Source: a virus. Taken from it: a DNA stretch of 64,000 nt. The translations under genes and the position numbers were made by a program. The stretch's first letter is position 1. Every line of letters starts with the position of its first letter. The notes below the pieces were generated by a model. That model ran no database searches. It saw nothing but the letters and a program-made list of their open reading frames with translations, and was not told the origin of the DNA. This document shows, in pieces, positions 1,195-19,010 of this stretch. The DNA lies in the IMG/VR virus record IMGVR_UViG_3300029796_000300; one strand, 5' to 3'.

Positions 1195-1229
1195 AAAAAG
1201 AAAAAGCGCCGCCCACAAAGGGGCGGCGC
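1195..1229 (-). terminator. rho-independent terminator (GC hairpin GCGCCGCCCC..GGGCGGCGC + T-tract on minus strand)
   Basis: Inverted GC-rich repeat followed by T-run in gene sense. Confidence 0.6.
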
Positions 1230-1235
1230 TCAGGT

Positions 1236-1448
1236 TTAAGACTTGGGAATGGCCTCCAGAAAGGGTTCGACCTTCCGGAACACCTTCTCAGAGCAGAGAA
1301 CATTATTTCCGTTGCCAAGGTGCAGTTCCACGCGGTCGCCGATTCTGTTCCAGACCTTCTCCCCGTGCAGTGTATAGACGGGTAGGCTGCCGTATCTGCC
1401 GGCTTCCACGGTATGCAGCAGAGACGTCAGGTTCTTGATTTTATACAA
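1236..1448 (-). CDS. small hypothetical protein (TTG start)
   Basis: 70-aa ORF between upstream gene stop and terminator; GAGGTGA RBS. Confidence 0.35.
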   Translation of the reverse strand: MYKIKNLTSLLHTVEAGRYGSLPVYTLHGEKVWNRIGDRVELHLGNGNNVLCSEKVFRKVEPFLEAIPKS

Positions 1449-2202
1449 GGGCCGTCACCTCTGTCATTTCCCCGTCGCAGCGGAGAATCTTGAAGACTGC
1501 CATATCCACATTGGGATATGCCTCGGCAATCTTCTGGGCGACCTCGGCCTTGGAGGCTGCGTATACGTCCATGATGAGCATGGGACCACCGCAGTCCGCC
1601 CAGTTGCCCTCCTGGGATTCATCCATCGGGTCAGCATCCTCGGACAGCTGCTGGGGGAAGTAGCCCTGCGCGTCGCGCACATACGAGCTATTAAGGAACA
1701 CAAGATAGCGGCATTCCGCAACCTTGTCCCTGACTCGCTCAAAGAAGGCGCTGGCATCGAAGAGCTTTACCGCTTCCTCAAAGTGACTCGCACACTCCTG
1801 CGCAGGGACAAACAGGGCAATTTCGTCACCCTCCGGGTCGGTATCCTCGCCGAACAGAACGGTCCCCCACGGCTTGCACTGTCTGGTCAGTTCCGTTGCA
1901 ATGCTGCGGAGCGCTTTCCTCGCCTTCTGTTTGGCGTCCTTGACAGCAGGGACATCCATCCAGTTACTGTTGAACATCGTCGTGAGGAGCATCCCATCCT
2001 CGCCGCTGTAAGTGACCGTATAGAGATTTGCGTCGCAGCCGGGGCTGAACTGATAGTGTTCGTACAGTTCCTTCACCGCAGCGGGAAGCCGCTCAGAGTC
2101 ACCTGTCGAAAACCCAGAACCGGGATAGTTTACCTCGCCCTCGGCGTTACACCAGTAATACATGGAATCGGTCTGATATGCTTTGTTCAAACTTTTAATC
2201 AT
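1441..2202 (-). CDS. hypothetical acidic protein
   Basis: 253-aa ORF, good RBS context, operon with neighbours. Confidence 0.6.
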   Translation of the reverse strand: MIKSLNKAYQTDSMYYWCNAEGEVNYPGSGFSTGDSERLPAAVKELYEHYQFSPGCDANLYTVTYSGEDGMLLTTMFNSNWMDVPAVKDAKQKARKALRSIATELTRQCKPWGTVLFGEDTDPEGDEIALFVPAQECASHFEEAVKLFDASAFFERVRDKVAECRYLVFLNSSYVRDAQGYFPQQLSEDADPMDESQEGNWADCGGPMLIMDVYAASKAEVAQKIAEAYPNVDMAVFKILRCDGEMTEVTALV

Positions 2203-2232
2203 TTTTCATTTCTCCTTTGTTCCGTATTTTTC

Positions 2233-2778
2233 TTATTCATTGCCCGCCCGGATAACCGCAGCGACGGCCTCTGGCGTCGCGCCGATGGCATCCGTATAGT
2301 TGATGAACTCGTCCTCGGCATAGTCGCGTCCGCCCACGATGTAGGCAGAAACTACCATAGTCCAGAGGTGTTTGAAATCCTCAACGGACATATCGGCTGG
2401 CCGCTTAGCCAGCAGCCTTGGATGGGTCTTGGCAACAATGTCCAGCAGGGCATCTTCGTCGATGGTCTTGCTGTACGCATAGGTCTCCTTGTCGTTCAGG
2501 AGTCGTTCGACCTGTGCGGCCAGGATTTCGACGCGCTCATAAGCGGTCAGCTCCCCGGCACCGTCGTCAGGACCGCAGCCGTTGTCCAGCTGGGCCTGGA
2601 ATGCGGCCAAGTCCTCGTCCCAACAGGCGGTGTGTGCCAAGTAATAATAGGCGTTCTCGGCAGCCACATTGACGTCGAACCTGGAGTCATACTCCAGCTC
2701 GTCCAGTGCCCTGTCGATGACCTCCCGAACCCGTTTAAGGGTGAGAGAGGAGGATTCGTAGTCTTTCAGCAATTTCAT
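2233..2778 (-). CDS. hypothetical acidic protein
   Basis: 181-aa ORF. Confidence 0.6.
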   Translation of the reverse strand: MKLLKDYESSSLTLKRVREVIDRALDELEYDSRFDVNVAAENAYYYLAHTACWDEDLAAFQAQLDNGCGPDDGAGELTAYERVEILAAQVERLLNDKETYAYSKTIDEDALLDIVAKTHPRLLAKRPADMSVEDFKHLWTMVVSAYIVGGRDYAEDEFINYTDAIGATPEAVAAVIRAGNE

Positions 2779-2806
2779 GCTTCTGTCTCCTTTCGAGTCA
2801 AGAAAA

Positions 2807-4237
2807 TCAGTTGTTGGGCTTCAGAATATCGGGTATCCAGTTTTCAGCAGATGGCCTGCGGAGACTCTCCGGCACGCAATCATAGAACGCTGAATTTTCC
2901 GCCACAGCCATGTCGATAATCCAGAAATCGTCACCATTCTGCATCACGTCGATGCTCCACTGGCCTTGCAGGTCAAGCGCCGGCAGGAATTCCCGAATGT
3001 GTTCCACCACGGAATCGACATTCTCATGGTAGCGCCGCATCAAGGTCGCTTCGTGACTTTTGAAAATCACATAATCGTGCATCTGATGCGGACTGTTTGC
3101 GTCCGAGCATGAACCAAAGCGATTGAGCATAGTCTTCGGCTCCCAATAGGGAGAGACACCGATGACAGCATCGCTGTCACAGTCAACAAATACGCGATAT
3201 TCCGTATGAAGCGGCAAACCATGATAGATACAGGGATTTCCCTCTTTATCTGGAATGAATTCCCGCACGACCCACTCATTTGTCGTTGAGACCCCATAAA
3301 TGCAGGGAAAGCTAAGGGGACCGGCCATCTGTAACGCCTGATGGTGGATGTAGAGCAAATACTCGCCAAGCTCTCGAACCTCTTTTTCTCCGTGTACCAG
3401 ACAATTCCGGAAGTCGAACTTCGATGAATAGGTGCCGGTTTTCACGAAGTAATCCCGCTCGTCATTCAGGCGAAATACAGCGTGCGCCCAGTTATCGACG
3501 ATTTGGATGGTCGAAGGCGTTAGGCTGTGATAGTCCAGACGAGTCAGCTGTAAGAGCGTCAGGGGGACCTTGGCTATCGTCGTTGCCGGAATCCGGAAGA
3601 ATCCAGAATCCCGGTAGGCACTCACAAGCTCCGGGAACCAATGTCCGATGGAGTTGCGATTCTGCCCGATGATGCGGTAGGCCAGCGCATCAAGGTCAAG
3701 GATGTCCAGTCCCTGCCGAAAGCGGTTATACGCATCCCGACGGTCCTTCGGCGTCTTCCCGTTCTGCATCTTGTCGTAGTAGAACAGGAACACAGCTGAG
3801 GCGGTGATGTCAAGGTCTCGCTTCATCAGTTCCCCACTCAGCTGCGGTCGCAGCGAAGCGGGAATTCGCAGCAGGTCCTGATTGGTGACAGGAGCATTTT
3901 TCTCCGGTGCGTTGGAAAGCGATTTTTCAATTTTGCCTGTTTTCCCATCATAAGTGTAGGTCAGCGTCTGCCAGATAAGCTCCTTCACGATGCGTTCCGT
4001 AAGAGCTTTCAGCTCTTCCGGGCTGTCGTCGCCGAGCCGCTCGTTTTTCGCCGCTGCCTGCCTGGAATTGACCTCGAAAATGCTTTCTGGCTCAGTCTGC
4101 AACGCAGCTTTGGAATAAGCCTTCTCGAAGGCATCCAGTGCATCAGGACTGACGCGCAGGATTTCCGCGATTCGGTCTCTGCTAATGTAGAATTTCTGTG
4201 CGGATGTCTGAGCAAACAGATTGTCTAAACCAAACAT
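2807..4237 (-). CDS. putative ATP-grasp-like enzyme (C-terminal ...YRVFVDCD...WIIDMAVAENSAFY resembles ATP-grasp fold)
   Basis: 476-aa ORF; motif resemblance only, no database check possible. Confidence 0.55.
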   Translation of the reverse strand: MFGLDNLFAQTSAQKFYISRDRIAEILRVSPDALDAFEKAYSKAALQTEPESIFEVNSRQAAAKNERLGDDSPEELKALTERIVKELIWQTLTYTYDGKTGKIEKSLSNAPEKNAPVTNQDLLRIPASLRPQLSGELMKRDLDITASAVFLFYYDKMQNGKTPKDRRDAYNRFRQGLDILDLDALAYRIIGQNRNSIGHWFPELVSAYRDSGFFRIPATTIAKVPLTLLQLTRLDYHSLTPSTIQIVDNWAHAVFRLNDERDYFVKTGTYSSKFDFRNCLVHGEKEVRELGEYLLYIHHQALQMAGPLSFPCIYGVSTTNEWVVREFIPDKEGNPCIYHGLPLHTEYRVFVDCDSDAVIGVSPYWEPKTMLNRFGSCSDANSPHQMHDYVIFKSHEATLMRRYHENVDSVVEHIREFLPALDLQGQWSIDVMQNGDDFWIIDMAVAENSAFYDCVPESLRRPSAENWIPDILKPNN

Positions 4238-4249
4238 CTTCAGCCCTCC

Positions 4250-4998
4250 TTATGAGATTTGAGAATCGGCGTTCTTCACATAGTCTTTCACTTTCTTCTG
4301 AAGCTGGTTGACCTTGCAAATCACGTTCTCCTCGTCGTCGATATCCTCGTAACTGCTGTCACAGCCGTCTACCACATTACCGTTTGCGGCAATGTAGAGC
4401 GTATCGAAGGCAATGCTGTTGTACTCTGTGGAGTAATCCGTTACCAGCTCGTCCATGTCGGTCCTGAGCACCTCCGGTGCTCTTACGCCGATGCCGTTCT
4501 TGTTGGCACGTCCGGTATTTAACAGCCAATTCAAATCGTCATCCTTGACCGAATGCTGTTTACCCTGGCCGAAGAAGGACAAGCCGCTCAGAATTTTCGC
4601 GTTGTCATTGTCGCGGAACGCCTCGTGGAACATATCCACAGAGACATCGACCTCGCACATATCCTGCTCTTCCATCTTAGCATACGATTCCAGCAGCGTC
4701 AGCGCGAGGTCGCGCATCTGCTCCTTCGACGTCGCTCCGTTGGTGGCGACATAGAAAGCAGCCGGCATCGTGTCATAACGCTCCGCAAGCTCAAAGTACC
4801 GCTTGATGGCCGGAACATTCAAAGACGGCTCGCCGCCCGTGAAAATGACGGAAGCAGGGTGGATATGCTTAGCGATGCCCGACAGAACTGCTGTTGAGAT
4901 GTCAAGATTTTGCGCATCTCCGCGCAGGCAGTGGTTGCATTTCATGTTGCAGCGACGAGTGACCTCAATGGCGAGGTAATTTACATAAATCTCCATTT
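4250..4998 (-). CDS. radical SAM domain protein (CNMKCNHC = CxxxCxxC; TGGEP motif), small single-cluster type
   Basis: Cys triad 13 aa from N-terminus; ATG at 4996-4998 downstream of leader copy 2 with AAAGGAGAAATG RBS. Confidence 0.8.
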
Positions 4999-5036
4999 TC
5001 ATTTCTCCTTTTTTGTGATGGTTATGTGATATATAA

Positions 5037-5176
5037 AAGCCAGCACCCACGCGGGCGCTGACTGAACTTTCTCTTTTGTTTGTGATACTTCTTTGGTATG
5101 GTCTCAGCATACCGGCGGAAGTGGAAATTGCCGCATTCACCTTCCAAGAACCTGAGAACTGGAGAACCGGAGAACT
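5037..5176 (-). promoter_or_regulatory. conserved leader element (type B) copy 2; hairpin GCCAGCACCC-ACGC-GGGCGCTGAC (compensatory changes); GAACC/GAACT x4 at 8-bp period
   Basis: Alignment with other copies. Confidence 0.6.
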
Positions 5177-5182
5177 GCAAAG

Positions 5183-5216
5183 AAAAAGCGCCGTCCATTA
5201 CGGGCGGCGCTTTTTC
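5183..5216 (-). terminator. bidirectional-looking intrinsic terminator (GCGCCGTCC...GGGCGGCGC flanked by A/T runs)
   Basis: GC-rich palindrome with flanking T/A tracts. Confidence 0.55.
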
Positions 5217-5217
5217 A

Positions 5218-6135
5218 TCAAATTTTGTGGGTGCAGTACGGGCAGCGCTCGTCTGTCGCGTAGCAGATGCACTCGGTATCATCCTGCCAGGGGTGGCAGG
5301 TATTGATGCGGAACCGTGCGGAAAGCGCGGTTTCCAGATAGTCGGCCACAGGACCAATGGCGGCCATATCCCAGCGAAGCGGAAGCCCGTCGTCGGCATC
5401 CTCCTGTAAGGAGTGTTCGCCGGCGGCTTCCTTCGCCTCGTCCGTAGCGTCAGACAGGAGGCCCTCCGGAAGCGCGTTGACGTGTTCCACGGAAAGCTCA
5501 TTCACAGCTGCGAGAAGAGCCTCTTTCGGCGCTTCCCCGTTTACGCTGTGGCCTGTGACAACCGCGCAGATGAAGTCGAACACTGCGTTGTCGATGCGGT
5601 CGCCGGCCTCGGCGAGGAGGTCGTTGTCCTTGACAGGCTCCCTGCGGATGGTGCCATGCGTCCACGGCCCCGTGTAGGTGCCGATGCTTGGCAGGCGCTC
5701 CAGCAGGGCTGCTTTCATGCCGTCAAGGTACGCCTTGTAGTGCTTCCTCTGGAAACCCTCCGAACAGGGGTTATCCTTCTGAAGCAGTTCCACGGCATAG
5801 GCCCAGTCGCTGTCCTCAATGCCGATGTAAAACAGGCTGCTTTCGAGGATGACGCGCACATTGCGGCCAAGCCACTTGTCCTGCTTGACACGCGCAAAGC
5901 TGGGATACCTGTGCGTGAAGTTCTCCACAAAGCACTCCAGCACATCCTCCAGCTCGTTCGCACTGCCTTCGTCATCGAAGAGCCAGCCGTTGCCGGACAA
6001 ATCCTTGGCGCTGAGGTCTTTCTGGAGGATGGTATCCTCACAGTCATCCTCGCGGCGAAGCACTGTGGTATAGTCGCTGTCGATATAGAACAGGCCCTCA
6101 TACGGACCGCTCACACAAACATTACCTTTTCCCAT
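5218..6135 (-). CDS. hypothetical acidic protein with C-terminal Cys cluster (CHPWQDDTECICYATDERCPYCTH)
   Basis: 305-aa ORF. Confidence 0.6.
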   Translation of the reverse strand: MGKGNVCVSGPYEGLFYIDSDYTTVLRREDDCEDTILQKDLSAKDLSGNGWLFDDEGSANELEDVLECFVENFTHRYPSFARVKQDKWLGRNVRVILESSLFYIGIEDSDWAYAVELLQKDNPCSEGFQRKHYKAYLDGMKAALLERLPSIGTYTGPWTHGTIRREPVKDNDLLAEAGDRIDNAVFDFICAVVTGHSVNGEAPKEALLAAVNELSVEHVNALPEGLLSDATDEAKEAAGEHSLQEDADDGLPLRWDMAAIGPVADYLETALSARFRINTCHPWQDDTECICYATDERCPYCTHKI

Positions 6136-6173
6136 TTTTTCATTTCTCCTTATTGTTAAAAAATCGTAGATTC

Positions 6174-6377
6174 TCAGATGTCGTCATCACCGACATCGAA
6201 CCCCAAATGACAGAATCCAAACTCGTCGGACAGCCAGTTGGAAATCGTGTCGAGCCATTCTTCCCTACTTGCAAAATGGGATTGGTCGAATCTGCTTGGC
6301 AGCTCAACTTCCTTCGGCAGGGAGGCTCTTGCCTCCCTGTCGCCGTCGGTGTCCCAAAGGATATTGCGGATTTTCAT
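6174..6377 (-). CDS. small hypothetical protein (MKIRNILWDTDGD...)
   Basis: Internal Met of ORF 6174..6410 with AAAGGAGAAATAATG RBS. Confidence 0.5.
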   Translation of the reverse strand: MKIRNILWDTDGDREARASLPKEVELPSRFDQSHFASREEWLDTISNWLSDEFGFCHLGFDVGDDDI

Positions 6378-6388
6378 TATTTCTCCTT

Positions 6389-6793
6389 TCAGTCGGCGGA
6401 CACATACCACCAGCCGGTGTATCTGTCTTCTTCGTGATTTCTTTCGTCCTCCTTGTGGTCGTAGTAGCCGGTGTGGAGGTCAAAGGCCTCCCCTCGTTCG
6501 TTGTAAAGCTGCCACAGGAGGTCGCACAGCGCGTTCGCGGCAGATTCTGTCTTGCACAGAATCTGGTCCCCATCGCTCCAGACTTCGCCATCGGAATAGT
6601 CGCGAACCCGCGCACAGATGAACGAAAAGAAATCCTTTTCTGCATAGCTGTCGCAGTTCACGGAGATATCGAGCGTTTTGCTGACATTCTCAATCTCGTC
6701 GTAGTGTCCTTTGACGAGATAGTTGTTCACGATGAACTGCATCCGCTTGGAGCACACGCCCACATGAGTGCAGTTGAGACAAGTCTTCTGCAT
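6389..6793 (-). CDS. hypothetical Cys-containing protein
   Basis: 134-aa ORF in operon. Confidence 0.55.
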   Translation of the reverse strand: MQKTCLNCTHVGVCSKRMQFIVNNYLVKGHYDEIENVSKTLDISVNCDSYAEKDFFSFICARVRDYSDGEVWSDGDQILCKTESAANALCDLLWQLYNERGEAFDLHTGYYDHKEDERNHEEDRYTGWWYVSAD

Positions 6794-6794
6794 A

Positions 6795-7460
6795 TCAGCA
6801 ATCCTCCTTCATCATGAAATCCTTCATAGCGTAGTCCTGGCAGCCGTCATCGCCCAGTCTCGGAGCCTTTCCGGTGACGAAGGGCAGCTTGCAGATGCCG
6901 TGCGGATTGAAGACACAGAACTCCGTGTCGCATTCCGTACACAGCTTCTCCAGTTCGGCGTAGTTATCCCGTTCCTGGTCGGAACTGCACTCAATCTTCG
7001 TCAGATATTTCAGGCTGGCATTCATGGTATTCCCGGTTTTGAGCAGGTAGTTGAACATACCGTTTCCGGTATCGTCCCTCTCCACGCTCAGGAACCTCAC
7101 GGTTGCAGCCTCAGAACGAGGCAGCAGCTCGACGATTTTGACCGTGGCACGGGAAGCATTCTCCGTTCCAAAGCCATAGGTACAGACATCGCCGGCCTTC
7201 AGCTCCTGTGCAGGCTGATTGTGACGGCAGGTATCGGCCTCGGAGTTGTAATCGCAGTTCTCCACGCACTTGTCCTCCGGATGCTGGCAGGCGTCACAGA
7301 GCATCAGCCGCTTGCCGCAATGAGGGCAGAACGCCTTGTAGCCGTCTGCGGCCACATTCCATCGCATCTCAACCTCTGCTTCGCAATGCGGGCAGACCTC
7401 TGTCACGATATACTCGCGGTCTTTGCAGGAACCGGTGGTTTTCTCACTAATATTAGTCAT
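6795..7460 (-). CDS. Cys-rich (multiple CxxC) putative zinc-binding protein
   Basis: CPHCEAE...CPHCGKR...CTECDTEFC motifs; second ATG has better RBS spacing. Confidence 0.6.
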   Translation of the reverse strand: MTNISEKTTGSCKDREYIVTEVCPHCEAEVEMRWNVAADGYKAFCPHCGKRLMLCDACQHPEDKCVENCDYNSEADTCRHNQPAQELKAGDVCTYGFGTENASRATVKIVELLPRSEAATVRFLSVERDDTGNGMFNYLLKTGNTMNASLKYLTKIECSSDQERDNYAELEKLCTECDTEFCVFNPHGICKLPFVTGKAPRLGDDGCQDYAMKDFMMKEDC

Positions 7461-7484
7461 AATTCTCATTCTCCTTCTTTTTTG

Positions 7485-8183
7485 TCAGTCACGCCAGTAT
7501 GCGCCGTCTTTCGCTTCGCCCTTCGGGAAAACGGTATACTCTGTTCCGTGCAGCACGATGTACTCATGGTTCAGAACATTGACAGAATCTCCAACGTCAA
7601 TGGTCTGAATGTTGAATACCTGCTTTGTGTCCAGACAGACGTCTGCCTTTGTCGCCGCAATGCAATTTCCGCCGTCCCAAACGGAGACATAAGGGATGTT
7701 GCGAACGATGGAAGGCTCTTCCTCAGTGCTCTGCTCAGCTTTCTCCAGAGCTGCCCGTACCTCGCCAATCTGCCAAGAAGGCATCAACGGGAATCCGGCT
7801 CTCGTATAGAGACCGCCGCCCGCCTCCGCCTTCTCCAAGGCGGCCTTTGCGGCGTCCTCGGATGCGAAGATGGTGTACTGGCTGACCTCGATACCGGGCA
7901 AGTAGGAAAACGTCTTCGTTTTACCATCAGAGCATTCGACTTCGGTCATTCCCGAATAGGCAACGCCCGTCCAGCCAAACCAACCGGGTTCCACAAATTC
8001 GGAGAAGGTCACAGTAGACACCGTTACTTTTACGACCGCCAACTCTCTCGTGGACGGACGATACAGCCGACCGTATTTGTTGACTTTCTGCTTAAAGGTG
8101 ATTGCGTACACCTCGGAGCCAATGCCGATGGGAACGCCGTCAGCAGTCTTGCACGCTGGTAAGAGATATGCCTTGTTCTTCAT
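7485..8183 (-). CDS. hypothetical protein
   Basis: 232-aa ORF, first gene after leader copy 3. Confidence 0.6.
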   Translation of the reverse strand: MKNKAYLLPACKTADGVPIGIGSEVYAITFKQKVNKYGRLYRPSTRELAVVKVTVSTVTFSEFVEPGWFGWTGVAYSGMTEVECSDGKTKTFSYLPGIEVSQYTIFASEDAAKAALEKAEAGGGLYTRAGFPLMPSWQIGEVRAALEKAEQSTEEEPSIVRNIPYVSVWDGGNCIAATKADVCLDTKQVFNIQTIDVGDSVNVLNHEYIVLHGTEYTVFPKGEAKDGAYWRD

Positions 8184-10500: not shown

Positions 10501-11622
10501 TCATTCAAGAAAGTCCTGAAGCATCTTCCCTGCCTTTCCGTTGCGTAGCTTATCGAGTGTTTTATCTGTAACCTGACGGACACGCTCTCGCGTTAAGTCC
10601 ATTTCGTCCCCGATTTCTTTGAGGGTATAAGCACAACCATCCTCCAATCCGAATCGTAAGCGAAGCACACAGGCGTCTCGTGCGGGCATATCGTGCAGGA
10701 TTTTGTCCATCGTTTCCCATAGTGCCTTCCCTGACGTTGAAATTTCCGGGTTATCCCACTCGTTATGGCTTGGGATGAATTCCGAAAGCGGTGTGTTGGA
10801 ATCGCTTGCGGCGTCCGAATTGACGGGCGCATCCAACGAGTCCGGCTTCCGGTACTGGAGCGAGTGTTGGATGATGCGCAGTTTTTTCTGCTGCTCCCTT
10901 TTTGAAAGGGAATCCCACGCATCCCCCTCCATGTATTTTGCGATTTCTAAAGGGTCATCACAAGGTAAGCCTTTTTGTTGCATTTGTTCTTTTGCATTAT
11001 TGACGCTCCGCCTGCCCTCCGCAACATAGATGGGCTTGCGAATGGCTGGGTCCGTCGTGGCAAGCGCTCTTGTGATGTTTTGCCTTATCCAGAAGGTTGC
11101 GTAGGTGGAAAACTTCACATTCCTCGAAATGTCAAAAGAGTCGATGGAACGCATGAGGCCAATGTTGCCCTCCTGAATGAGGTCCATGAACACCATAGAA
11201 TCGGCTGAGTTTATATATTTCTTTGCGATGGACACAACAAGCCGAAGATTGCCCTCAACAACCTTATCTTTCGCCCGTCTTCCTGCTTCTATGGCCTTCA
11301 TCAGGTCTTTCTTGATTTCGGGGTCAACTGCATTCCCGCTCTCCTCGGCAATTACCCGCAGCGTTTCGAGCTGTTCGGCAGCGGCATTCCCCTTCTGCAC
11401 TTTTTCAATGCAGCGATTCGCTTCCACCTGCGGCATAATGGGAATGCTGCCAATTTGGCTGAGATACATCGCCACATGGTCGCCGATATTTCCCGGCTGC
11501 TTCGCTTCGGTCTCCTGTTCATTCGAAGCTGTGATTTCTTCTGTTTCAGGCTGCCTTTCAATGGCTTCATAGGCAAGCGCACGGTCAGCGGCTAAATTAC
11601 TGGTATTCGTGATGTCAACCAC
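10501..11622 (-). CDS. RNA polymerase sigma-70 family sigma factor (regions 1.2-4; housekeeping-like paralog carried on element); start codon uncertain (GTG at 11622 or ATG at 11472)
   Basis: Region 2 motif LIQEGNIGLMRSIDSFD...FSTYATFWIRQ; region 4 HTH LKEIGDEMDLTRERVRQV. Confidence 0.8.
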   Translation of the reverse strand: MVDITNTSNLAADRALAYEAIERQPETEEITASNEQETEAKQPGNIGDHVAMYLSQIGSIPIMPQVEANRCIEKVQKGNAAAEQLETLRVIAEESGNAVDPEIKKDLMKAIEAGRRAKDKVVEGNLRLVVSIAKKYINSADSMVFMDLIQEGNIGLMRSIDSFDISRNVKFSTYATFWIRQNITRALATTDPAIRKPIYVAEGRRSVNNAKEQMQQKGLPCDDPLEIAKYMEGDAWDSLSKREQQKKLRIIQHSLQYRKPDSLDAPVNSDAASDSNTPLSEFIPSHNEWDNPEISTSGKALWETMDKILHDMPARDACVLRLRFGLEDGCAYTLKEIGDEMDLTRERVRQVTDKTLDKLRNGKAGKMLQDFLE

Positions 11623-11641
11623 CCCCCTTCACTGAATGCAG

Positions 11642-11670
11642 CAATTATACCACACAATAGCTTACTTGTC
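11642..11670 (-). promoter_or_regulatory. consensus sigma-A type promoter TTGACA-N17-TATAAT with TGTGG extended -10 (type A family)
   Basis: rc reads TTGACAAGTAAGCTATTGTGTGGTATAAT. Confidence 0.6.
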
Positions 11671-11720
11671 AATCAAAAGGCCGCCAGCGATGTGCTGACA
11701 GCCTTCCAGGATGGGAGAGA

Positions 11721-12224
11721 CTATTTTTGCTGTTGTGCGCGGAGTTGCTCCACCTCCGCCCTCCAGCGCGGTGTGGCCGTACTGATTGCCTCAACGGTAC
11801 TTGGCGTGGTGGAGAGAGCCAGAATATCGGCTTTCGTCTTCACTCCTTCCAGACGGCGACACATCTCCTCGTAGGTCGTGCTGTTGTCTGCCGTAATCCA
11901 ACAACCGCAGATGTCGTTTGAGCCGTCATCGTTGTGCCGGCTGGCGGTAGTGGGAATCTCAATGCACCAGAGGGCGAACTCGGAATATTCGGTGCTGCGG
12001 AATACATCCTGCACAAAGGGGTTTGTTTTCTTGAGCTGCTCCACAAGAGGACGCGCGCAGTTTTTTTCCTGTTCATCCCTCCTTTGCGCAAGCCATATAT
12101 TTTGCAATTCGAGAAAATGCGTTTCCTCGCCGCTTAATCTTTTTCCGTCAATTGCCTTCTGAATGAGGTGTTCTCCCCGTTCCAAAAGCTCTTCAATCGT
12201 TGGGAACTTACCGTTTTCAAACAT
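11721..12224 (-). CDS. hypothetical protein
   Basis: 167-aa ORF. Confidence 0.55.
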   Translation of the reverse strand: MFENGKFPTIEELLERGEHLIQKAIDGKRLSGEETHFLELQNIWLAQRRDEQEKNCARPLVEQLKKTNPFVQDVFRSTEYSEFALWCIEIPTTASRHNDDGSNDICGCWITADNSTTYEEMCRRLEGVKTKADILALSTTPSTVEAISTATPRWRAEVEQLRAQQQK

Positions 12225-12229
12225 TGATA

Positions 12230-12757
12230 TTACACCTCCGAAATTTCGATTCCGTACTTTTCCAACATGAGTTTGCGTTTCATAAGATACTTTTCGGTTC
12301 GTTTTCCCTTCGCGTCTTCCACGATGCGTTTACCGTTGCGAAGGTATACGAAATCTGCCTTATAGACCATTGGGCGAACCCGCTTGCCATTTGGCCGTGT
12401 ATAGCCCTCGACCAGCGTGAAGTCCTGCTGGAGCCGCAGGTCCTGGATTGCACCGCCCTTGTACTGCAAATACAGTTCATCGAAGCGCCGTGCCTCCCGC
12501 TTGCTGGGGAATTTCACGGTTTCTCCATCCACCACGCGAATGACCTTTACATTGCGATATTTGGATGGCTCAGCAGCGTCCGCTTCTTTCGGCTGTTTTT
12601 GCCTTTTCTGTGCTTCCGGCTGTTTTTTTGCTTGCTGCTGTTTCTGTTCGCGCTTCTGCTCGTCGAGCTTTGCACGCACCTGAATCTGTGCGGAAAGCGG
12701 CAGGCTATTGATGTCAATACCCACCTTCAGTTCCTCCGCCTGTTTGTGGCGCGGCAT
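12230..12757 (-). CDS. DUF1064-like phage protein (KYRNVKV...YKADFVY...IVEDAKG motifs), basic/Q-rich N-terminus
   Basis: Motif resemblance to DUF1064 family. Confidence 0.6.
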   Translation of the reverse strand: MPRHKQAEELKVGIDINSLPLSAQIQVRAKLDEQKREQKQQQAKKQPEAQKRQKQPKEADAAEPSKYRNVKVIRVVDGETVKFPSKREARRFDELYLQYKGGAIQDLRLQQDFTLVEGYTRPNGKRVRPMVYKADFVYLRNGKRIVEDAKGKRTEKYLMKRKLMLEKYGIEISEV

Positions 12758-13116
12758 TTTGGCTGCTTCCTTCTCGCAGCAGAATCAAATTCATGACCTT
12801 CCATACCGTCCAGATACACAGATGGCGAACTATGCTTCTGCTGGTGCCGTGCAGGTCGGCGATTTGCGAAAACGTCATTCTGTCACGAAAATACTTTTGG
12901 ACGATATCGCGGTTTCGCTCAGGAAGTGTGTCCAGCGCTTCATCGAACATCTCGTTAAAGCCCGGTGTAAATGAAATTTGATTCTTACCCCAGGCTGAAA
13001 TTTGATTCTTACACCAGGCAAAGGATGTATCGTACATAATGGCCGCCTTCCGCCACTCCTCCGGGGCAAACTCAGGCTGGTTAATCTTGTCTGTCGTTTG
13101 TTTCTTTGTCATTTTT
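12714..13116 (-). CDS. small sigma region-4-like HTH DNA-binding protein; contains in-frame tandem repeat (AWCKNQIS AWGKNQIS)
   Basis: RNRDIVQKYFRDRMTFSQIADLHGTSRSIV resembles sigma-70 region 4. Confidence 0.5.
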
Positions 13117-13357
13117 GTTTTTCCTTTCTCCGTCGCTGCAAAAACTATTTGGAAATGTCCGATGCTGCGGCATGAGAGATGTACCACCGCAAACCCAACC
13201 GTCTGATTGCGAAAATACACAGCCCTCACATCGCACCACCGGCACGGCATCCACAGTGGGGGCTTTTTCGAGCAAGCCAAGTAAGCCGTTCCAACCAGCA
13301 CAATACGCCGCAGGGAGAACATCTTTGCTGCACCGCCCCACGCCCAATTTATCAATA

Positions 13358-14614
13358 TCAACCAGATTCATGGTCAGCACCTCCGTCCATCTTGGCCCCG
13401 CAATCCTCGCAGTATTTTTTGGTAGGCTTGTCCCAACTGCCCTCAGTGGTAATGACAAAGCCGCACGCAGGGCAACACCACTCGTCCCCGCCAAGATGCG
13501 CCCAGCTGGTGTGCATTACCGGGGCCACGTCAGTGGTGAGAAAATCTCTTCGTGAGCTGCGCCACAGCATGAGCAGCATCTCGCTGACCGGTCTGGTTCG
13601 GTCCTTCCTCACGGCTTTCCTCACGCATCGCAGATGCCCGCCGTCCGGGCAAAGCACACCGACGCCGTATGGCACAGTATCCTTCACCGCTTCGAAGACG
13701 TCTGCGGGCATAACGTAGTAGTTGTAGTCCGCGATGAAGTTGTGCCCGTTAGGAGATTTGAAATCCTCCACAGAGGACTTGACCTCGTAGGCGTAGAAGT
13801 CCCCCTTCTCAATGCCGGAGGTCGAATTGTTGAGCGGCTGAAAGCGCATATAGTCCACGCGGATTTTGTGGTTCGTAGAGTAGTCGAATGTGACCTCTCT
13901 CGCCCAGTAGATGCGTGGGTCGTTGCGCGGGTCGATGTATCGCTCCAGCATGGCAGAGAGCTGGCGAGTGTGTTCCTTCCGGGTGAAGGCATCACTCGTT
14001 TCCGGACAGAATTGAGCTGGCTTTCCAAGGATGAAATGGAACGGCAGAGCCTTTTCCAGTACGTCGATAATATTCTGAAGGGTCCCCTGCCCGCATTGGC
14101 GCAGATTCTTCAGTTTGCCGCTCTCTATCAGTCGAACAACATCGCCGATACTTTGGGCACCACTGAACATAAGGCAGTTCTTGGTGCGAGTCGAGAAATT
14201 GAGGCACTGAAACGGAACAGAATCGCACAACTCCTCGATTTTTTTCCAGTTGCCATTCTCAATGGCCTCCTTCAAAGTAGAGGCGAGAGGGCTGCCTGCA
14301 AACCGGCGCATTTCTTTCAGGATACCCCCCGCATATTTGGGGTGACGCAGCCTCCTTATGGCGAGGTCGAAGCAAGAGTAGAACTTGCCGATGTCAATTT
14401 CCAGTGCGTTTGCGCATTGTGTTGGTGTAAGACCGTCGCGGTAGCGTTTTAAGATAGCTTCCCGCTCCAACTCAGGGAATGTGGCGATGGCAGCGTCTAC
14501 AGCTGCGTCGAAAGAGTCAGAGAACTCAGCACACGGCATACACAAGCAATCCTGCATCAAATTCTTTCGCCATTCTACTGACGAGCGAAGCAGGAAACGC
14601 TCCTCAGTGTTCAT
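13358..14614 (-). CDS. multidomain protein: N-terminal sigma region-4-like HTH, RpoA alpha-CTD-like HhH segment, C-terminal PD-(D/E)xK-like nuclease motif, C-terminal Cys4 ribbon
   Basis: EREAILKRYRDGLTPTQCANALEI; LNFSTRTKNCLMFSGAQSIGDVVRL; GDFYAYEVKSS; CPACG...CEDCG. Confidence 0.6.
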   Translation of the reverse strand: MNTEERFLLRSSVEWRKNLMQDCLCMPCAEFSDSFDAAVDAAIATFPELEREAILKRYRDGLTPTQCANALEIDIGKFYSCFDLAIRRLRHPKYAGGILKEMRRFAGSPLASTLKEAIENGNWKKIEELCDSVPFQCLNFSTRTKNCLMFSGAQSIGDVVRLIESGKLKNLRQCGQGTLQNIIDVLEKALPFHFILGKPAQFCPETSDAFTRKEHTRQLSAMLERYIDPRNDPRIYWAREVTFDYSTNHKIRVDYMRFQPLNNSTSGIEKGDFYAYEVKSSVEDFKSPNGHNFIADYNYYVMPADVFEAVKDTVPYGVGVLCPDGGHLRCVRKAVRKDRTRPVSEMLLMLWRSSRRDFLTTDVAPVMHTSWAHLGGDEWCCPACGFVITTEGSWDKPTKKYCEDCGAKMDGGADHESG

Positions 14615-14826
14615 TCCGCTCCAACCTCCTCGTCATACTCTTCCGGGGTGATGATTTCTATGTATTCCGCACTGTAGCCCAGTGCGTCAAGACGCAGAAG
14701 TTCCGCGACCTTCTCTTTGTTGATGGATGCAGCAATTTCCTCGTATGAGATATCCCTCTCTGCCGCCTCAAAGCTCAGCTGTACCACAAATGTGGGCAGC
14801 CGAAAACAAACTCTGTAATTTGCCAT
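14611..14826 (-). CDS. small hypothetical protein
   Basis: 71-aa ORF with AAGGAGGGA RBS. Confidence 0.45.
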   Translation of the reverse strand: MANYRVCFRLPTFVVQLSFEAAERDISYEEIAASINKEKVAELLRLDALGYSAEYIEIITPEEYDEEVGAE

Positions 14827-14841
14827 TTTTTGAATCCCTCC

Positions 14842-15339
14842 TTAAAAATCGTGGACGTACTGCCAACTCTGCGGTGCTCTCGCAAGTGCGAAGCAGTCGA
14901 GGCTCTTGGGCCGGTCATAGGTCTGCACATCAGAGATGTGCCATCCGTATCCCACGCGGCCACAGAGGTAGTCCTCTGCTTGCTTCACGGTGAGGCAGGC
15001 GTCCTCATACAGTTTCCCCGCTGGGGTGTAGTTTCCAGGTTGTGCGTTGACACAGTATTGAAGCGGCGCGTTGCTGCCCATATAGCCCACGCGCACCACA
15101 CGGTCAATTTCGGTACAGGTAAACTCCCCTACCACAAGACCGTTTGCCTTGTAGATTTTGCCGCCGCTATGGATTTCAAGAATTTCACCGGGCTTCTTTG
15201 TACCCTTGCAGGAGCAGTAGAGAAATACCATGAAGGGCGGCGTAAGGTTCGGTCTGGACAGGCGCAGCTCCACGGTCTTCTGGCCCGACAGGATTTTCTG
15301 GAGCCACTCAGGTCGGATGCTGAGCATGATGTTTTTCAT
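14842..15339 (-). CDS. ASCH (PUA-like) domain protein
   Basis: N-terminal MLSIRPEWLQKILSGQKTVELR typical of ASCH; GAAAGGAG RBS. Confidence 0.6.
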   Translation of the reverse strand: MKNIMLSIRPEWLQKILSGQKTVELRLSRPNLTPPFMVFLYCSCKGTKKPGEILEIHSGGKIYKANGLVVGEFTCTEIDRVVRVGYMGSNAPLQYCVNAQPGNYTPAGKLYEDACLTVKQAEDYLCGRVGYGWHISDVQTYDRPKSLDCFALARAPQSWQYVHDF

Positions 15340-15380
15340 AGGAAAACTCCTTTCCGACGGCAAAAGCCGCCTTGTCTTGC

Positions 15381-15408
15381 TTGACAAAGCGGCTTGCTGG
15401 TGTATAAT
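15381..15408 (+). promoter_or_regulatory. plus-strand sigma-A-like promoter TTGACA-N16-TATAAT driving a short antisense RNA
   Basis: cTTGACAaagcggcttgctggtgTATAAT. Confidence 0.45.
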
Positions 15409-15415
15409 AAAAGCA

Positions 15416-15505
15416 GAAAGGCGATACCGATAAGCGGTCAGCCTAAGAGAATAGAGTCAAACGAAATGACCGTCTTCCTTTGGCGAGGGGCGGTCATTTT
15501 CGTTT
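15416..15505 (+). ncRNA. candidate ~90-nt antisense sRNA ending at a palindromic terminator shared with the convergent peptide gene
   Basis: Promoter at 15381-15408; hairpin ATGACCG..CGGTCAT + TTTCGTTTG at 15466-15505. Confidence 0.35.
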
Positions 15506-15586
15506 GCAAATCTGAACTATCAGACCCACAAGGCCGATGATAACAAGAGAATACGCAAAAAGCGATTCGTAAGTAACCATTGGCAT
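15494..15586 (-). CDS. 30-aa hydrophobic peptide MPMVTYESLFAYSLVIIGLVGLIVQICKRK (Fst/Ldr-like type I toxin candidate)
   Basis: Strong GGAGGGAGG RBS; minus-strand TTGACA-N17-TAAGAT promoter at ~15664-15698; single TM helix + KRK tail. Confidence 0.5.
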   Translation of the reverse strand: MPMVTYESLFAYSLVIIGLVGLIVQICKRK

Positions 15587-15722
15587 CACCTCCCTCCACA
15601 GGGAAGTGCCGACCGCCTACCGTATATGGTAACGCCTTTCTGGCTCCTTTTGGAGCATTGTTATCTTACCAAAAAGGCCCCGCTTTGTCAATTTCCACCG
15701 CCCACGGTTTATCCGCAGGTGG

Positions 15723-17117
15723 TTATTTTTTTGCCTCGGCTGCTGCATGGGGAAGCCGCACCCAGCCGCCCTTATGACGAACAAGCTGGATTTTCTTCAT
15801 GCTGACCATAAGCGGCTTTCCATCCGTGAGTAGGCTTAATGCCCTGCCATAGCTGGAGCAGCCCTTGGAAACGTATTTGCGATTGCCGTAGACCACGATA
15901 TCTCCCGGCTGCATGGCATATCTCTGCTTTCTGGTCGAGGTTCGGCCCTTTGACTTCTTACAGCCACGGAACCGGCGCAGATTTTCGCCGTCAAGGTTAT
16001 GATTGCGGTTCGTCCTGCCGGAGGACAGCTCGTTGCCAGAACGGATAACTCCCTTTTCCCGTGTGTCGTAATATTTGGCGTCATAGAATTTGGATAGGAC
16101 TCTGTTGTTTCGCCTGTATTTCTGGAAGACCTCTGTTTCGCATCTGGCTTCCGGACGCAGCTCGCCCATGCAGTAGGCATCCGTAGCGCAGGAATACGGG
16201 AGGCCGAGGTTGGTGCGGACGCGCTTGGAGATGACGCCATAGGTCATGTGTACTTCCGCAACACCCTGGAAGCGAGCCATCGCACGCTGATAGAGAATCC
16301 AGCGCACGCTATTCATAAACGCTTCGCCGGTATATTTCCGCAGAGGCTTATCGAAGCCCCACAGCTTCCCGCCCTCCTTGTGATTGGCAGGTGTGTTGCA
16401 CTTCTCGCAGCAGGTCGCAAGCTCCCTCATGCTGTTCCCATGCAGACCTTTCCAGTAGTAGGCGTGATGGACATGAAGGATAGCGCCGTCTTTCAGGCCT
16501 CTCTTGCAATACACACAGGTATAGTGGTCCCGTTCAAAGACCGCTTCCCGCAGCGTATCGTAGCCGTACTGCGGTCCATGCTGATAGTCCTTGCCCTGCG
16601 GGACAGGTTCCCCTGCCTCCAGCGCCGCAAGGAGCTGTGTATCGTATGTCGCGGCCTTGATAAAGACATCCGTGACAGGCATGACAGACAGATAACGGGA
16701 GATAATATCCAGGTGCCGCTCCACCTTGTTGTCCAGAGACGGAGCAATCCAACCGGGCTTTTTGCCTGATACACGGTTATTGAACCGTGCAGCCCGATAC
16801 CGCAGGCGGTTTCTGCGCGTCCGGCGGTACGCTCGGCAGTCGTCATGGCGAGAGCGCTCGTTCGTGAGCATATCATATTGCTGCGATACGACCTCTTTTG
16901 CCTTTGTCTTAATGCTGACGCCGATATGCTCATATCCGGTGCCGACGCACATTTCGATGGGCTGGGTATAGGTACTGGTATCGTAGGTCAGCTGGATGGT
17001 GAACGGGTTCCGCTTCGCAATCACAGCGCGGCCATCCTTCAACAGATGGCGCACTTTGCCGTAATTTTCGGTCGGCATCAGCCGTTCACCGTTTGCACTT
17101 AAAACACATACTGGCAT
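15723..17117 (-). CDS. IscB-family protein (PLMP, bridge helix, HNH zinc finger present) with RuvC catalytic residues substituted (RuvC-I D->T, RuvC-II E->K, RuvC-III H->C) relative to the canonical copy at 29896..31188
   Basis: Pairwise alignment by eye: ILGVDAGSKTIG vs EMCVGTGYEHIG; VVVETAEFD vs VFIKAATYD; HTNDALAIA vs SCATDAYCM; HNH HVHH kept, N->E. Confidence 0.8.
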   Translation of the reverse strand: MPVCVLSANGERLMPTENYGKVRHLLKDGRAVIAKRNPFTIQLTYDTSTYTQPIEMCVGTGYEHIGVSIKTKAKEVVSQQYDMLTNERSRHDDCRAYRRTRRNRLRYRAARFNNRVSGKKPGWIAPSLDNKVERHLDIISRYLSVMPVTDVFIKAATYDTQLLAALEAGEPVPQGKDYQHGPQYGYDTLREAVFERDHYTCVYCKRGLKDGAILHVHHAYYWKGLHGNSMRELATCCEKCNTPANHKEGGKLWGFDKPLRKYTGEAFMNSVRWILYQRAMARFQGVAEVHMTYGVISKRVRTNLGLPYSCATDAYCMGELRPEARCETEVFQKYRRNNRVLSKFYDAKYYDTREKGVIRSGNELSSGRTNRNHNLDGENLRRFRGCKKSKGRTSTRKQRYAMQPGDIVVYGNRKYVSKGCSSYGRALSLLTDGKPLMVSMKKIQLVRHKGGWVRLPHAAAEAKK

Positions 17118-17640
17118 CTTATTTTTTCCTTTCACGCTGCGGGTGCAGTTTCCTGTCATTCGATGGGGGACGTCAACTGCGTGATGCTCCGTTTGCGGGG
17201 GGCTGCGGTATAGCTACCTGTCATTTGGTGGGGGACGTCAACCTGTCAATCCGGATTGCAATTTAATCGTACGGTATAGCTCCCTGTCATTTGGTGGGGG
17301 ACGTCAACTGAAGTTGAGTTTGCCGAGTATATTCCAAACGACAAACCAAAAAGGTAAATCAGCACTTACCGCTCACGCGGCGTTACTGTGGTCCACATCG
17401 CCAAGGATATACCGGGTTTGATGGTACGCACACTTCTCCTTCCCCTCAGAGATGTTTAATACGCACCCGCAGAGCGGCGGACTTGTGGAGTATCCGCCGG
17501 TGCCTATGTATTCCGGCATATCGTAGTCTTGCGGCTGAGGCTTATTGACGAGGCTTACTCTCCTTGCGGGTCATAAGCCACACCAAATGACAGGAGGCTG
17601 AGCCGGAGTTTCCGGCGCACCCGCCCGCCATTCGGCGGGG
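17118..17640 (-). ncRNA. putative IscB omega-RNA region upstream of iscB-like gene (shares conserved core with region 31189-31470)
   Basis: Structured, non-coding, homologous motif ...ctcagag.tgtttaa...ccgcagag...ccgccggtgcctat... shared with second IscB locus. Confidence 0.45.
17139..17313. repeat. three direct copies of 26-bp unit CCTGTCATTTGGTGGGGGACGTCAAC at ~70-bp period; unit is complementary to CACCAAATGACAGG at 17586-17599
   Basis: Direct reading of sequence. Confidence 0.75.
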
Positions 17641-17645
17641 TAAAG

Positions 17646-17984
17646 CTAAAGAGCAGCGTCCTGATTGACAGGACATTCGAGACTCATGTTTTTTCTCTTC
17701 TCACAGGACTCTGCCTGCGACCACAAGCTGTTTGGCAGATTGAGCACCGTTACGAGGACATCCCCGGCAAACAGATAGACGTGCCGGTGATATACTCGAA
17801 TATTGTTGATGGTTTTGTTTTTGAAGCGGATGGATGTAAGGTATCCATTCAGGTGGCCTCTGGTCTCCGAGTGCTTCACGCCAAAGTCAAAGGCTTTCTG
17901 TGCATTGCGCACGGCTGCTCTTTTGCCGAGACCAGCACGCTGTTTTGTACGCTTCCTCGCGTGTTTACTTACCTGCGCTGACAT
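17646..17984 (-). CDS. basic hypothetical protein (MSAQVSKHARKRTKQ...)
   Basis: Internal Met of ORF 17646..18128; weak RBS. Confidence 0.3.
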   Translation of the reverse strand: MSAQVSKHARKRTKQRAGLGKRAAVRNAQKAFDFGVKHSETRGHLNGYLTSIRFKNKTINNIRVYHRHVYLFAGDVLVTVLNLPNSLWSQAESCEKRKNMSLECPVNQDAAL

Positions 17985-18567
17985 GGTTCGTATCATTCTG
18001 ATGGACAGACACCGCGTTGCGATTGGCCTGCCGAATGAGCGACAGGATATCGTCCAGCCTGTTTCCGCCAAAGTACACAAGTAATGGCTGATACAGCGCC
18101 AATACCGCCACAACAAAGCAGACGGCATCAGCAGTACCCGCAGGGAAATCCGCCCGTGCCATAACTACAGAATACAGGCTTGCCAGCAGTACAATCGCCG
18201 CTGTGAGGGAAAGAACGGTATGGAAGAATAAAGCGAGCGCCTTACTCACAGCACCGCAGTTGGCGAACTTCTTCTCCACGAAATACTTCGCAGCCGGCAA
18301 GCCCACCAGGACTGCCAGCAGCACAAGCTGGATACCAAGAGAGACTTTGGGAATCTGGAACTCCCGGCTCTGGAAGAACAGCGTCACGCGGCTGCCGACG
18401 TTCAGGGTTTCAATGAGTAGGAATAGCCACAGAACCGCAAGCACCAGCGGTCTCGGCGCATTGAGCTTGCCCACGGCGAAATCGCACAACACCCATAGCA
18501 CAATGAGTACCGCAAGCTGCGGCATCATGAGCCGCCCTAATTCCAGAGCAAAACTAACAAAAGTCAT
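17965..18567 (-). CDS. polytopic membrane protein (several hydrophobic helices)
   Basis: 200-aa ORF, strongly hydrophobic. Confidence 0.55.
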   Translation of the reverse strand: MTFVSFALELGRLMMPQLAVLIVLWVLCDFAVGKLNAPRPLVLAVLWLFLLIETLNVGSRVTLFFQSREFQIPKVSLGIQLVLLAVLVGLPAAKYFVEKKFANCGAVSKALALFFHTVLSLTAAIVLLASLYSVVMARADFPAGTADAVCFVVAVLALYQPLLVYFGGNRLDDILSLIRQANRNAVSVHQNDTNHVSAGK

Positions 18568-18699: not shown

Positions 18700-19010
18700 A
18701 GAAAACCAAAGATTTGGTAAATCAGCACTTACCGCTCACGCGGCGTTACTGTGGTCCACATCGCCAAGGATATACCGGGTTTGATGGTACGCACACTTCT
18801 CCTTCCCCTCAGAGATGTTTAATACGCACCCGCAGAGCAGCGGACTTGTGGAGCATCCACCGGTGCCTATGGATTCCGGCATATCGTAGCCTTGCGGCTG
18901 AGGCTTATTGACGAGGCTTACTCCCCTTGCGGGTCATAAGCCACACCAAATGACAGGAGGCTGGGTCGGAGTTTCCGGCGCACCCGCCCGCCATTCGGCG
19001 GGAGTGCAGA
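18700..19010 (-). ncRNA. orphan near-identical duplicate (~300 bp, a few SNPs) of the omega-RNA-like segment 17341-17640, not adjacent to any iscB
   Basis: Near-identity over ~300 bp incl. CACCAAATGACAGGAGGCTG at 18946. Confidence 0.45.

Follow-up and report, generated by a model that had tools for sequence, protein, structure and literature searches.

What does the short region between an ASCH-domain gene and an IscB gene encode in the viral record IMGVR_UViG_3300029796_000300? The window analyzed here is the whole 64,000-nucleotide (nt) stretch of this IMG/VR record. An earlier reading made from the letters alone (the sequence-only reading) had proposed that positions 15381–15700 hold a compact type I toxin–antitoxin (TA)-like locus, in which a 30-residue hydrophobic peptide is opposed by a convergent antisense RNA. 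We followed up this proposal computationally and retain its core. We put the probability at roughly 0.8 that the locus is a type I TA module of the bsrG/SR4 (TxpA/BsrG-type) design, belonging to a phage or prophage of Oscillospiraceae. The in silico support consists of a conserved family of open reading frames (ORFs), conserved promoters and terminators, covariation in a long-range helix (P1) and in hairpins of the toxin messenger RNA (mRNA), predicted occlusion of the Shine–Dalgarno (SD) sequence, and the match to bsrG/SR4. The ORF and its RNA elements, referred to below as the cassette, are listed in Table 1.

Is the ORF a gene, and where does it start? The minus-strand ORF at 15494–15586 (or 15589) encodes (M)MPMVTYESLFAYSLVIIGLVGLIVQICKRK, with the SD sequence GGAGGGAGG in front. 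It had been described as 30 codons long; the ORF itself stands, and its start has to be moved. The conserved start is the third codon, an ATG at 15580 that opens the sequence MVTY and lies 8 nt downstream of GGAGG, whereas the in-frame alternatives at 15586 (ATG) and 15589 (GTG) are not conserved. Since the MVTY methionine is the conserved start, the product has 28 residues and not 30. Residues 7–25 have a mean Kyte–Doolittle value of 2.45 and the tail reads KRK, in line with the single-transmembrane (TM) peptide with a basic tail that had been proposed. Among 1.84 billion representative proteins, 22 were significant matches, and they share the motif MVTY[ESD]xLF[AQ]Y[ST]LVIIG...K[RK]K. In all 22 proteins the motif is C-terminal, behind unrelated N-terminal extensions that resemble gene-caller overruns. 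Two 90%-identity clusters of the short peptide (P0009 and P0031) also hold members of 402 and 416 residues, which are probably gene calls running through the cassette.

The wider family was collected with a degenerate DNA pattern for the N-terminal 13 residues (MVTYxxLFxYxLV), which matched 51 viral contigs and at least 120 genome contigs, giving a family of at least 170 loci. Nearly all of the 175 pattern matches are ORFs of 26–32 codons with a Lys/Arg tail, comprising about 110 distinct peptides. Eight close relatives (L001–L008) are uninformative because they are 98–100% identical across the locus. Across the family, codon-position entropy follows the order third > first > second, and four of the five alternative frames contain stops in most cassettes. 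The peptide therefore has the properties expected of a type I toxin: a small hydrophobic protein (below about 60 residues) with a TM helix, a charged terminus and a coding signature in keeping with purifying selection. The family ranges over Oscillospiraceae, Lachnospiraceae, Anaerovoracaceae and their phages, and the recorded hosts are Oscillibacter, Flintibacter, Colidextribacter, Pseudoflavonifractor, Butyricicoccus, Pseudobutyrivibrio, Aminipila, Anaerotignum and relatives. More than one copy of the cassette is present in several genomes, in some cases in tandem; Flintibacter muris DSM 110149 has two. Tandem pairs with differing peptide variants lie 370–590 nt apart (L114, 1883–2509; L124, 1855–2270; L138, 3582–3985). 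A chance ORF was considered as well and rejected, since the peptide family is conserved and the convergent promoter keeps its position.

Is there an antisense RNA? Both promoters named in the sequence-only reading are present in the window (Table 1), and we scored them, as well as those of a family set of 137 distinct cassettes, by a consensus scan out of 12. The convergent promoter scores at least 10 in 119 of the 137 cassettes and at least 11 in 106, compared with 11 of 137 in a control on the sense strand of the same region. Its position is also conserved: in 121 of 135 cassettes, 70–99 nt separate the stop codon from the end of the −10 box. The sense (toxin) promoter scores at least 10 in 50 of the 137, mostly 80–119 nt upstream of the ATG, and by consensus score it is weaker than the antisense promoter throughout the family. 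The complementarity of the predicted antisense RNA takes in the 3′ half of P1, the spacer and the central hairpin, and reaches over the stop into the last four or so codons. A cis-encoded antisense RNA with its own promoter, its own terminator and complementarity to the toxin mRNA, the hallmark of type I antitoxins, is thus predicted in silico.

Where would the two transcripts end? Scored as an intrinsic terminator, the central hairpin passes in 82 of 83 cassettes when read on the antisense strand; read on the toxin strand, it passes a loose criterion in 49 of 83. Across the family, the 12 nt that follow it contain 7.5 T on the antisense strand versus 4.9 on the toxin strand. The U-tract of the antisense terminator is the complement of the toxin Lys/Arg codons. 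In the window, the central hairpin has no adequate U-tract on the toxin strand and fails the terminator criterion there. Because the U-tract lies on the antisense strand only, the palindrome is read as the terminator of the antisense RNA. The predicted plus-strand RNA of about 90 nt that ends over the 3′ end of the peptide gene, as originally proposed, is consistent with these counts. A toxin mRNA ending at the same hairpin is unlikely, and the predicted end is instead the outer terminator with its stem at 15364–15395. Of 83 cassettes, 49 have an outer terminator on the toxin strand; the opposite strand gives 7 and shuffled sequences give 10.

Why is the sequence on both sides of the ORF duplicated in inverted orientation? 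A repeat finder returned inverted repeats at 15381–92/15680–91 and 15414–28/15628–42, and a palindrome at 15458–72/15491–15506 that overlaps the stop codon. The sequence-only reading had taken the repeats for a duplication of two promoter-leader regions; the repeats are confirmed, but a mere duplication does not describe them. In every subfamily, the 5′ untranslated region (5′UTR) of the toxin mRNA shares a sequence module with the 5′ part of the antisense RNA, and the toxin-strand sequence beyond the central hairpin is complementary to the toxin 5′UTR. The calculated duplex energy of P1 is −47.9 kcal/mol for cognate halves, compared with −36.5 kcal/mol for non-cognate pairs within the family and −27.4 kcal/mol for shuffles. 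The differences between the repeat copies are G·U-compatible in 172 cases on the toxin strand versus 51 on the opposite strand, and this asymmetry argues for selection at the RNA level over concerted evolution of the copies.

Covariation leads to the same helix. RNAalifold, applied to 89 cassettes aligned by MAFFT, predicted the long-range pairs of P1 as its sole pairs. For the proposed structure, with the tested helices picked from the consensus of that alignment, 84.2% of the cells are paired, compared with 35–54% when the partners are slid. Double-change cells number 256 versus 60–86 in the slid controls, and none of 500 shuffles matches the observed values. For example, the pair at columns 135–458 is GC in 26 cassettes, AU in 21, GU in 13, UA in four and CG in three. 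On this comparative evidence, the inverted duplication is a covarying long-range RNA helix of the toxin strand. As the 5′UTR pairs with the region past the central hairpin, the toxin mRNA would therefore read through that hairpin. A 5′–3′ helix that closes the toxin mRNA and has its 3′ half within the antitoxin target is a defining part of the bsrG/SR4 type (PMC3834814), and the covariation and the G·U bias point to such a helix here.

How would translation be controlled inside this closed structure? The SD core is paired with a probability above 0.8 in 82% of 106 cassettes, compared with 17% when the upstream sequence is shuffled. In the window, the predicted occluding hairpin is CACUUCCCU-GUGG-AGGGAGGUG. 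The sequence-only reading had assigned this role to GCTCCAAAAGGAGC (15643–15656). That segment contains no SD sequence and instead folds into a 5′-terminal stem-loop of the mRNA. The hairpin within the ORF (15508–15527) shows 64 double-change cells versus 15–22 in slid controls, a signal that its coding position confounds. This hairpin (alignment columns 315–332) spans the conserved G-L...Q-I codons, with compensatory changes such as CG 35/UA 22 and GC 44/CG 19, and part of the amino-acid conservation there may be due to RNA structure. Regarding the leaders of other members, in the larger subfamily (e.g. L077, L079 and L118) the stretch of 5′UTR from the 5′ half of P1 to the true SD holds an anti-SD (GCCCUCU) twice as well as a pseudo-SD (GGGGGC). 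Such a leader leaves room for alternative ON and OFF folds, which the shorter leader of the window lacks.

Table 1. Elements of the cassette and adjoining sequence, in window positions; RNA structures, transcripts and signals are predictions.
Feature	Position	Strand	Basis or remark
Full-length toxin mRNA, about 300 nt, closed by the 5′–3′ helix	15358..15657	−	−136.7 kcal/mol, z = −10.0; ends predicted
Toxin promoter, TTGACA-17-TAAGAT with TG extension	15663..15691	−	Score 10/12; predicted transcription start about 15656–15659
Stem-loop at the toxin mRNA 5′ end, GCUCC-AAAA-GGAGC	15643..15656	−	Stem-loops of differing sequence at this place in relatives, by eye
5′ half of long-range helix P1, CAGAAAGGCGUUACC...GGUAGGCGGUCGGC	15609..15642	−	Duplex energy, fold, covariation
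SD-sequestering hairpin	15587..15608	−	Predicted fold; SD at 15589–15597
Toxin ORF, 28 residues and stop, MVTYESLFAYSLVIIGLVGLIVQICKRK	15494..15580	−	Homologues, codon-position entropy, stops in other frames
Hairpin within the ORF, GGGUCUG-AUAGUU-CAGAUUU (SL2-like)	15508..15527	−	Moderate covariation, 70.8% paired
Central hairpin with stop codon and KRK codons	15458..15506	both	Antisense terminator (+); internal stem-loop of toxin mRNA (−), equivalent of bsrG SL3; covaries (helices 6–7)
3′ half of P1, GGCUGACCGCUUAUCGGUAUCGCCUUUCUG	15414..15443	−	Complement of the 5′ part of the antisense RNA
Toxin mRNA terminator, 13-bp stem 15364–15395, then UUUU	15358..15395	−	−19.1 kcal/mol; antisense −35 box in the loop
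Antisense (antitoxin) promoter, TTGACA-16-TATAAT	15381..15408	+	Score 12/12
Antisense RNA, about 90–95 nt	15415..15508	+	Fold −36.5 kcal/mol, z = −4.2; conserved promoter and terminator
Hairpin and T7 tract just past the toxin −35 box, abutting the IscB stop codon	15694..15732	+	−13.4 kcal/mol

From these features we infer both transcripts and their ends, an RNase III step, the toxicity of the peptide and its biological role, as follows. The weak promoter would give a toxin mRNA of about 300 nt, the 5′UTR of which pairs with its own 3′UTR as P1. This helix would enclose the SD-sequestering hairpin, the 28-codon ORF for the single-TM peptide with its KRK tail, and the stem-loop that contains the stop codon. 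The strong convergent promoter, located between P1 and the toxin terminator, would give an antisense RNA of about 95 nt ending at the stop-codon stem-loop, with the Lys/Arg codons of the toxin providing the U-tract of its terminator. Its complementarity would be complete over the 3′ half of P1, over the stem-loop and over the last part of the ORF. To judge from SR4, the first contact with the toxin mRNA is probably made loop to loop through the terminator loop of the antisense RNA, which would then invade P1 and form a long duplex, leading to RNase III cleavage and degradation of the toxin mRNA. Displacement of the 5′UTR may further tighten the SD occlusion. Loss of the antisense RNA would leave the toxin mRNA, stable and closed, to be translated, and the peptide would damage the membrane, which would favor retention of the prophage.

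A bolder version of this mechanism is conceivable, although we consider it rather doubtful. The antitoxin could be a mimic of the toxin 5′UTR that competes with the 5′ half of P1 for the 3′ half, so that a three-strand exchange frees the 5′UTR and the leader switches to a tighter, non-translatable fold. The subfamilies with two anti-SD copies might then work as a riboswitch-like ON/OFF toggle, and the cassette would define an RNA and peptide family of its own, widespread in gut Clostridia and their large phages and missing from Rfam, Pfam, NCBIfam and PHROGs.

Several results weigh against the bsrG/SR4-type assignment. Hol_Tox (PF16935) is the top Pfam match of the window peptide, which aligns from residue 1, and it is the commonest match across the family (18 of 109 members, best E of 5.9e-5, estimated to be near the cut-off). 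However, the window peptide scores 17.3 bits (E = 0.0045) against a gathering threshold of 23.3 and thus falls outside the family as defined, whereas BsrG and TxpA score 34.5 and 31.3 bits. The family profile gave no significant match to BsrG. The Rfam BsrG RNA (RF01412) gives 13.6 bits (E = 0.59) over 15537–15609, below its gathering threshold of 55, and no other Rfam family matched in the cassette region. Because the peptide is below the Hol_Tox cut-off, the profile misses BsrG and the Rfam score is this low, homology to TxpA/BsrG is suggested rather than established, and the shared architecture could be convergent. Regarding the RNA, the covariation control cannot wholly exclude concerted evolution of the repeat copies. 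The outer toxin-strand terminator is detectable in just 59% of the cassettes, and the predicted gain in SD pairing when the antisense RNA binds is small, from 0.81 to 0.90 in the family and nil for the window's own sequence. Lastly, some similar small proteins, e.g. YhzE-2, were non-toxic in tests (PMC2887945).

Could the cassette be explained otherwise? If both RNAs ended at one bidirectional terminator, their overlap would be a hairpin of about 50 nt and the leaders would be a promoter-leader duplication without a pairing role. An A-tract and a T-rich tract lie on opposite sides of the central hairpin, the hairpin could terminate the toxin strand in the 49 of 83 cassettes that pass the loose criterion, and the short toxin RNA is well folded on its own (z = −4.9). 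We nevertheless regard these shorter transcripts as unlikely. The toxin-strand side of the hairpin in the window lacks an adequate U-tract and the family is poorer in T on that side, as described above. Moreover, covariation of the 5′UTR with the region past the hairpin, with its strand-specific G·U tolerance, is unexplained unless the toxin strand is transcribed there. A toxin-strand terminator also comes after P1, and bsrG is built alike. The inverted repeats could also act as DNA signals, either of an invertible promoter/ORF switch or as the ends of a small mobile element. A perfect 12-bp repeat and a 15-bp one flank the ORF and an IscB element adjoins the cassette, but this explanation is very improbable. 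The 172:51 bias of copy differences toward G·U compatibility on one strand is a signature of RNA and not of DNA, and a constant indel of 6–16 nt distinguishes the repeat copies. No flipped forms were seen among the 137 cassettes, nearly all of which have their strong promoter on the antisense side, and no recombinase is associated. We rejected the inversion switch on the grounds of the G·U bias and the missing flipped forms. A linkage to IscB was rejected as well: IscB lies near the cassette in 9 of 171 loci, all of this phage lineage, and the adjacency is therefore incidental.

The function of the peptide allows a further alternative that leaves the RNA mechanism identical. The peptide may be not an addiction toxin but a phage membrane protein, acting in holin- or antiholin-like lysis timing, superinfection exclusion or abortive infection, with the antisense RNA setting the timing. 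In favor are the phage genome around the cassette, the name "holin-like toxin" of the nearest Pfam family and the general uncertainty about what type I toxins do biologically (PMC2887945). On the other hand, many copies lie on bacterial contigs of 90–570 kb (prophage-borne or not), with several per genome and some in tandem, which fits a selfish TA module better than a dedicated lysis gene. In the window, the cassette lies among genes for DNA binding and DNA metabolism, and no lysis gene was located nearby. We consider such a phage function improbable and the addiction-type module of the bsrG/SR4 design the better account.

The surroundings of the cassette agree with the position given in the sequence-only reading, between an ASCH-domain gene (a weak Pfam match) and an IscB gene; the latter encodes RRXRR and HNH domains, and a HEARO/omega RNA lies upstream of it. 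Distant ASCH-gene neighborhoods (L009–L064) contain no cassette, and the cassette is therefore not linked to ASCH. The 64-kb window contains one cassette and has phage-type gene content, including a helicase, a large terminase and a primase, and it aligns with IMG/VR contigs of up to 136 kb. Positions 1–8000 of locus L128, from a 570-kb isolate contig (JAWQDX010000001.1, Oscillospiraceae bacterium CM18GR_63), are collinear with 10905–16895 of the window at 86–96% identity, including both the IscB gene and the cassette. This collinearity points to a phage lineage with an Oscillospiraceae host and a prophage state. Regarding the hairpin at 15694–15732, its occurrence shows no strand bias in the family (37 versus 40 of 83) and its membership in the module is uncertain. 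Oriented against IscB, it would stop read-through in the antisense direction; equally, it could be the right end of the IscB element.

Three HEARO/omega-RNA matches are found on the minus strand of the window (17386–17549, 18749–18968 and 31248–31471). Two of them precede IscB-like ORFs (15723–17159 and 29896–31188), the products of which are 35% identical to each other. The omega RNA at 18749–18968 is followed by a 200-residue hydrophobic ORF (17965–18567) and not by IscB, and it may be stand-alone or orphaned. A 418-residue protein (13358–14614, minus strand) combines segments resembling sigma-70 region 4 and the C-terminal domain of the RNA polymerase alpha subunit, a pairing unusual for a phage transcription factor.

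How new is the cassette? Neither blastn nor tblastn against an annotated phage collection gave a match, PHROGs has no family for the window peptide and a PDB profile search returned nothing. NCBIfam gave weak, scattered TM-like matches only, including PepG1, and the Pfam and NCBIfam matches were sub-threshold across the family. None of the cluster members looked up has a name. A full-text literature search for the peptide strings (MVTY) found no paper; it did not cover the supplementary peptide list of Fozo et al. 2010. That study reported TxpA-like sequences in Clostridiales. T1TAdb is limited to genomes already in the literature. We regard the cassette as a clade that is new and unannotated, within a kind of system already known. 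It brings no new principle, being an element that is real but ordinary in kind. Nevertheless, a name and a working model are gained for a peptide–RNA cassette that is common among gut Oscillospiraceae and Lachnospiraceae and in their phages, and four family libraries (Rfam, Pfam, NCBIfam and PHROGs) miss the peptide family. The bsrG/SR4 design, with its closed toxin mRNA and an antitoxin terminator derived from toxin Lys codons, would reach well beyond Bacilli. The covarying alignment could seed an Rfam family and a hidden Markov model of the toxin for better annotation of small genes in gut metagenomes.

Which known system does the cassette resemble most? The sequence-only reading had named the Fst, Ldr and TxpA types together. 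Of these, TxpA is kept, with Hol_Tox as the best, below-threshold Pfam match, and Fst and Ldr are dropped. No Fst- or Ldr-type family matched in Pfam or NCBIfam, and a search of 109 peptides against Pfam at E values up to 1 gave none of the Fst type. The par locus of pAD1 (fst/RNAII) resembles the cassette in its convergent transcripts with a common terminator and in its short repeats near both 5′ ends. In par, however, the repeats are direct in the DNA, which makes the two RNAs complementary at their 5′ ends, whereas the inverted repeats of the cassette give identical leaders and complementarity within the toxin strand. The Fst-type organization is therefore a misfit, and an Fst-like mechanism was rejected on the orientation of the repeats and the lack of an Fst-type peptide match.

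Closure of the full-length toxin mRNA by a 5′–3′ long-distance interaction, as predicted for the cassette, is known from hok/Sok (the fbi–tac pairing) and from aapA1/IsoA1. Both differ from the cassette in being Gram-negative systems, in having the antisense RNA at the 5′ region or across the ORF, and in activation by 3′ trimming, and neither has homology to it. For txpA/RatA and sprG/SprF, we know of no report of a conserved 5′–3′ closing helix. These systems, from the skin element of B. subtilis and from S. aureus, respectively, do share with the cassette a small hydrophobic toxin and an antisense RNA that overlaps the 3′ end of the toxin mRNA and ORF, and they too are carried by a prophage or genomic island (PMC8594479; PMC6563280). 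Their toxins are longer (59 residues in TxpA, 31/44 in SprG) and the sequence similarity is marginal, the window peptide giving a weak match to PepG1 in NCBIfam. The type I TA modules of C. difficile prophages (CD0956.2/RCd10 and others; PMC6563280) resemble the cassette in their location in prophages of Clostridia and in their Lys-rich toxin tails. Their toxins have 34–59 residues and a prophage-stabilizing role has been proposed for them (PMC6563280). They are probably a separate family, the MVTY motif having turned up in none of the papers searched.

The closest counterpart is bsrG/SR4 of the B. subtilis prophage SPbeta (Jahn & Brantl 2013, PMC3834814). The bsrG mRNA, which has been probed experimentally, is 296 nt long; its helix P1 joins nt 1–35 with nt 232–262, stem-loop (SL) 1 contains the SD, SL3 has the stop codon in its 5′ part, and P1 is followed directly by the terminator (PMC3834814). 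SR4 pairs with SL3 and the 3′ half of P1, making its first contact through the terminator loop, and causes RNase III-dependent decay of the bsrG mRNA and an extended SD helix; its promoter was measured to be stronger than that of bsrG (PMC3834814). In the SPbeta sequence (L236), the Lys codons of BsrG provide the U-tract of the SR4 terminator. There are clear differences: the peptide has 28 residues compared with 38 in BsrG, the hosts are Clostridia and not Bacilli, and the cassette is known here from its sequence. SR4 is about 180 nt long and covers the toxin terminator (SL2 of SR4), whereas the antisense RNA of the cassette, at about 95 nt, does not. It would start at about 15415, upstream of the toxin terminator and with its −35 box in the terminator loop, whereas SR4 starts beyond the terminator. 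The shared features are nonetheless extensive. The predicted toxin mRNA is about 300 nt long with a long 5′–3′ closing helix and its SD in a hairpin, and the stem-loop that forms the complement of the antitoxin terminator is predicted to have the stop codon in its 5′ part. The predicted convergent antitoxin overlaps the 3′ end, would pair with the 3′ half of P1 and has the stronger promoter, and both systems have a prophage location. Like BsrG, the peptide begins M-[TV]-[VT]-Y-E-S-L and has one TM segment and a basic tail. The locus probably works like bsrG/SR4 and is probably a divergent relative of it.

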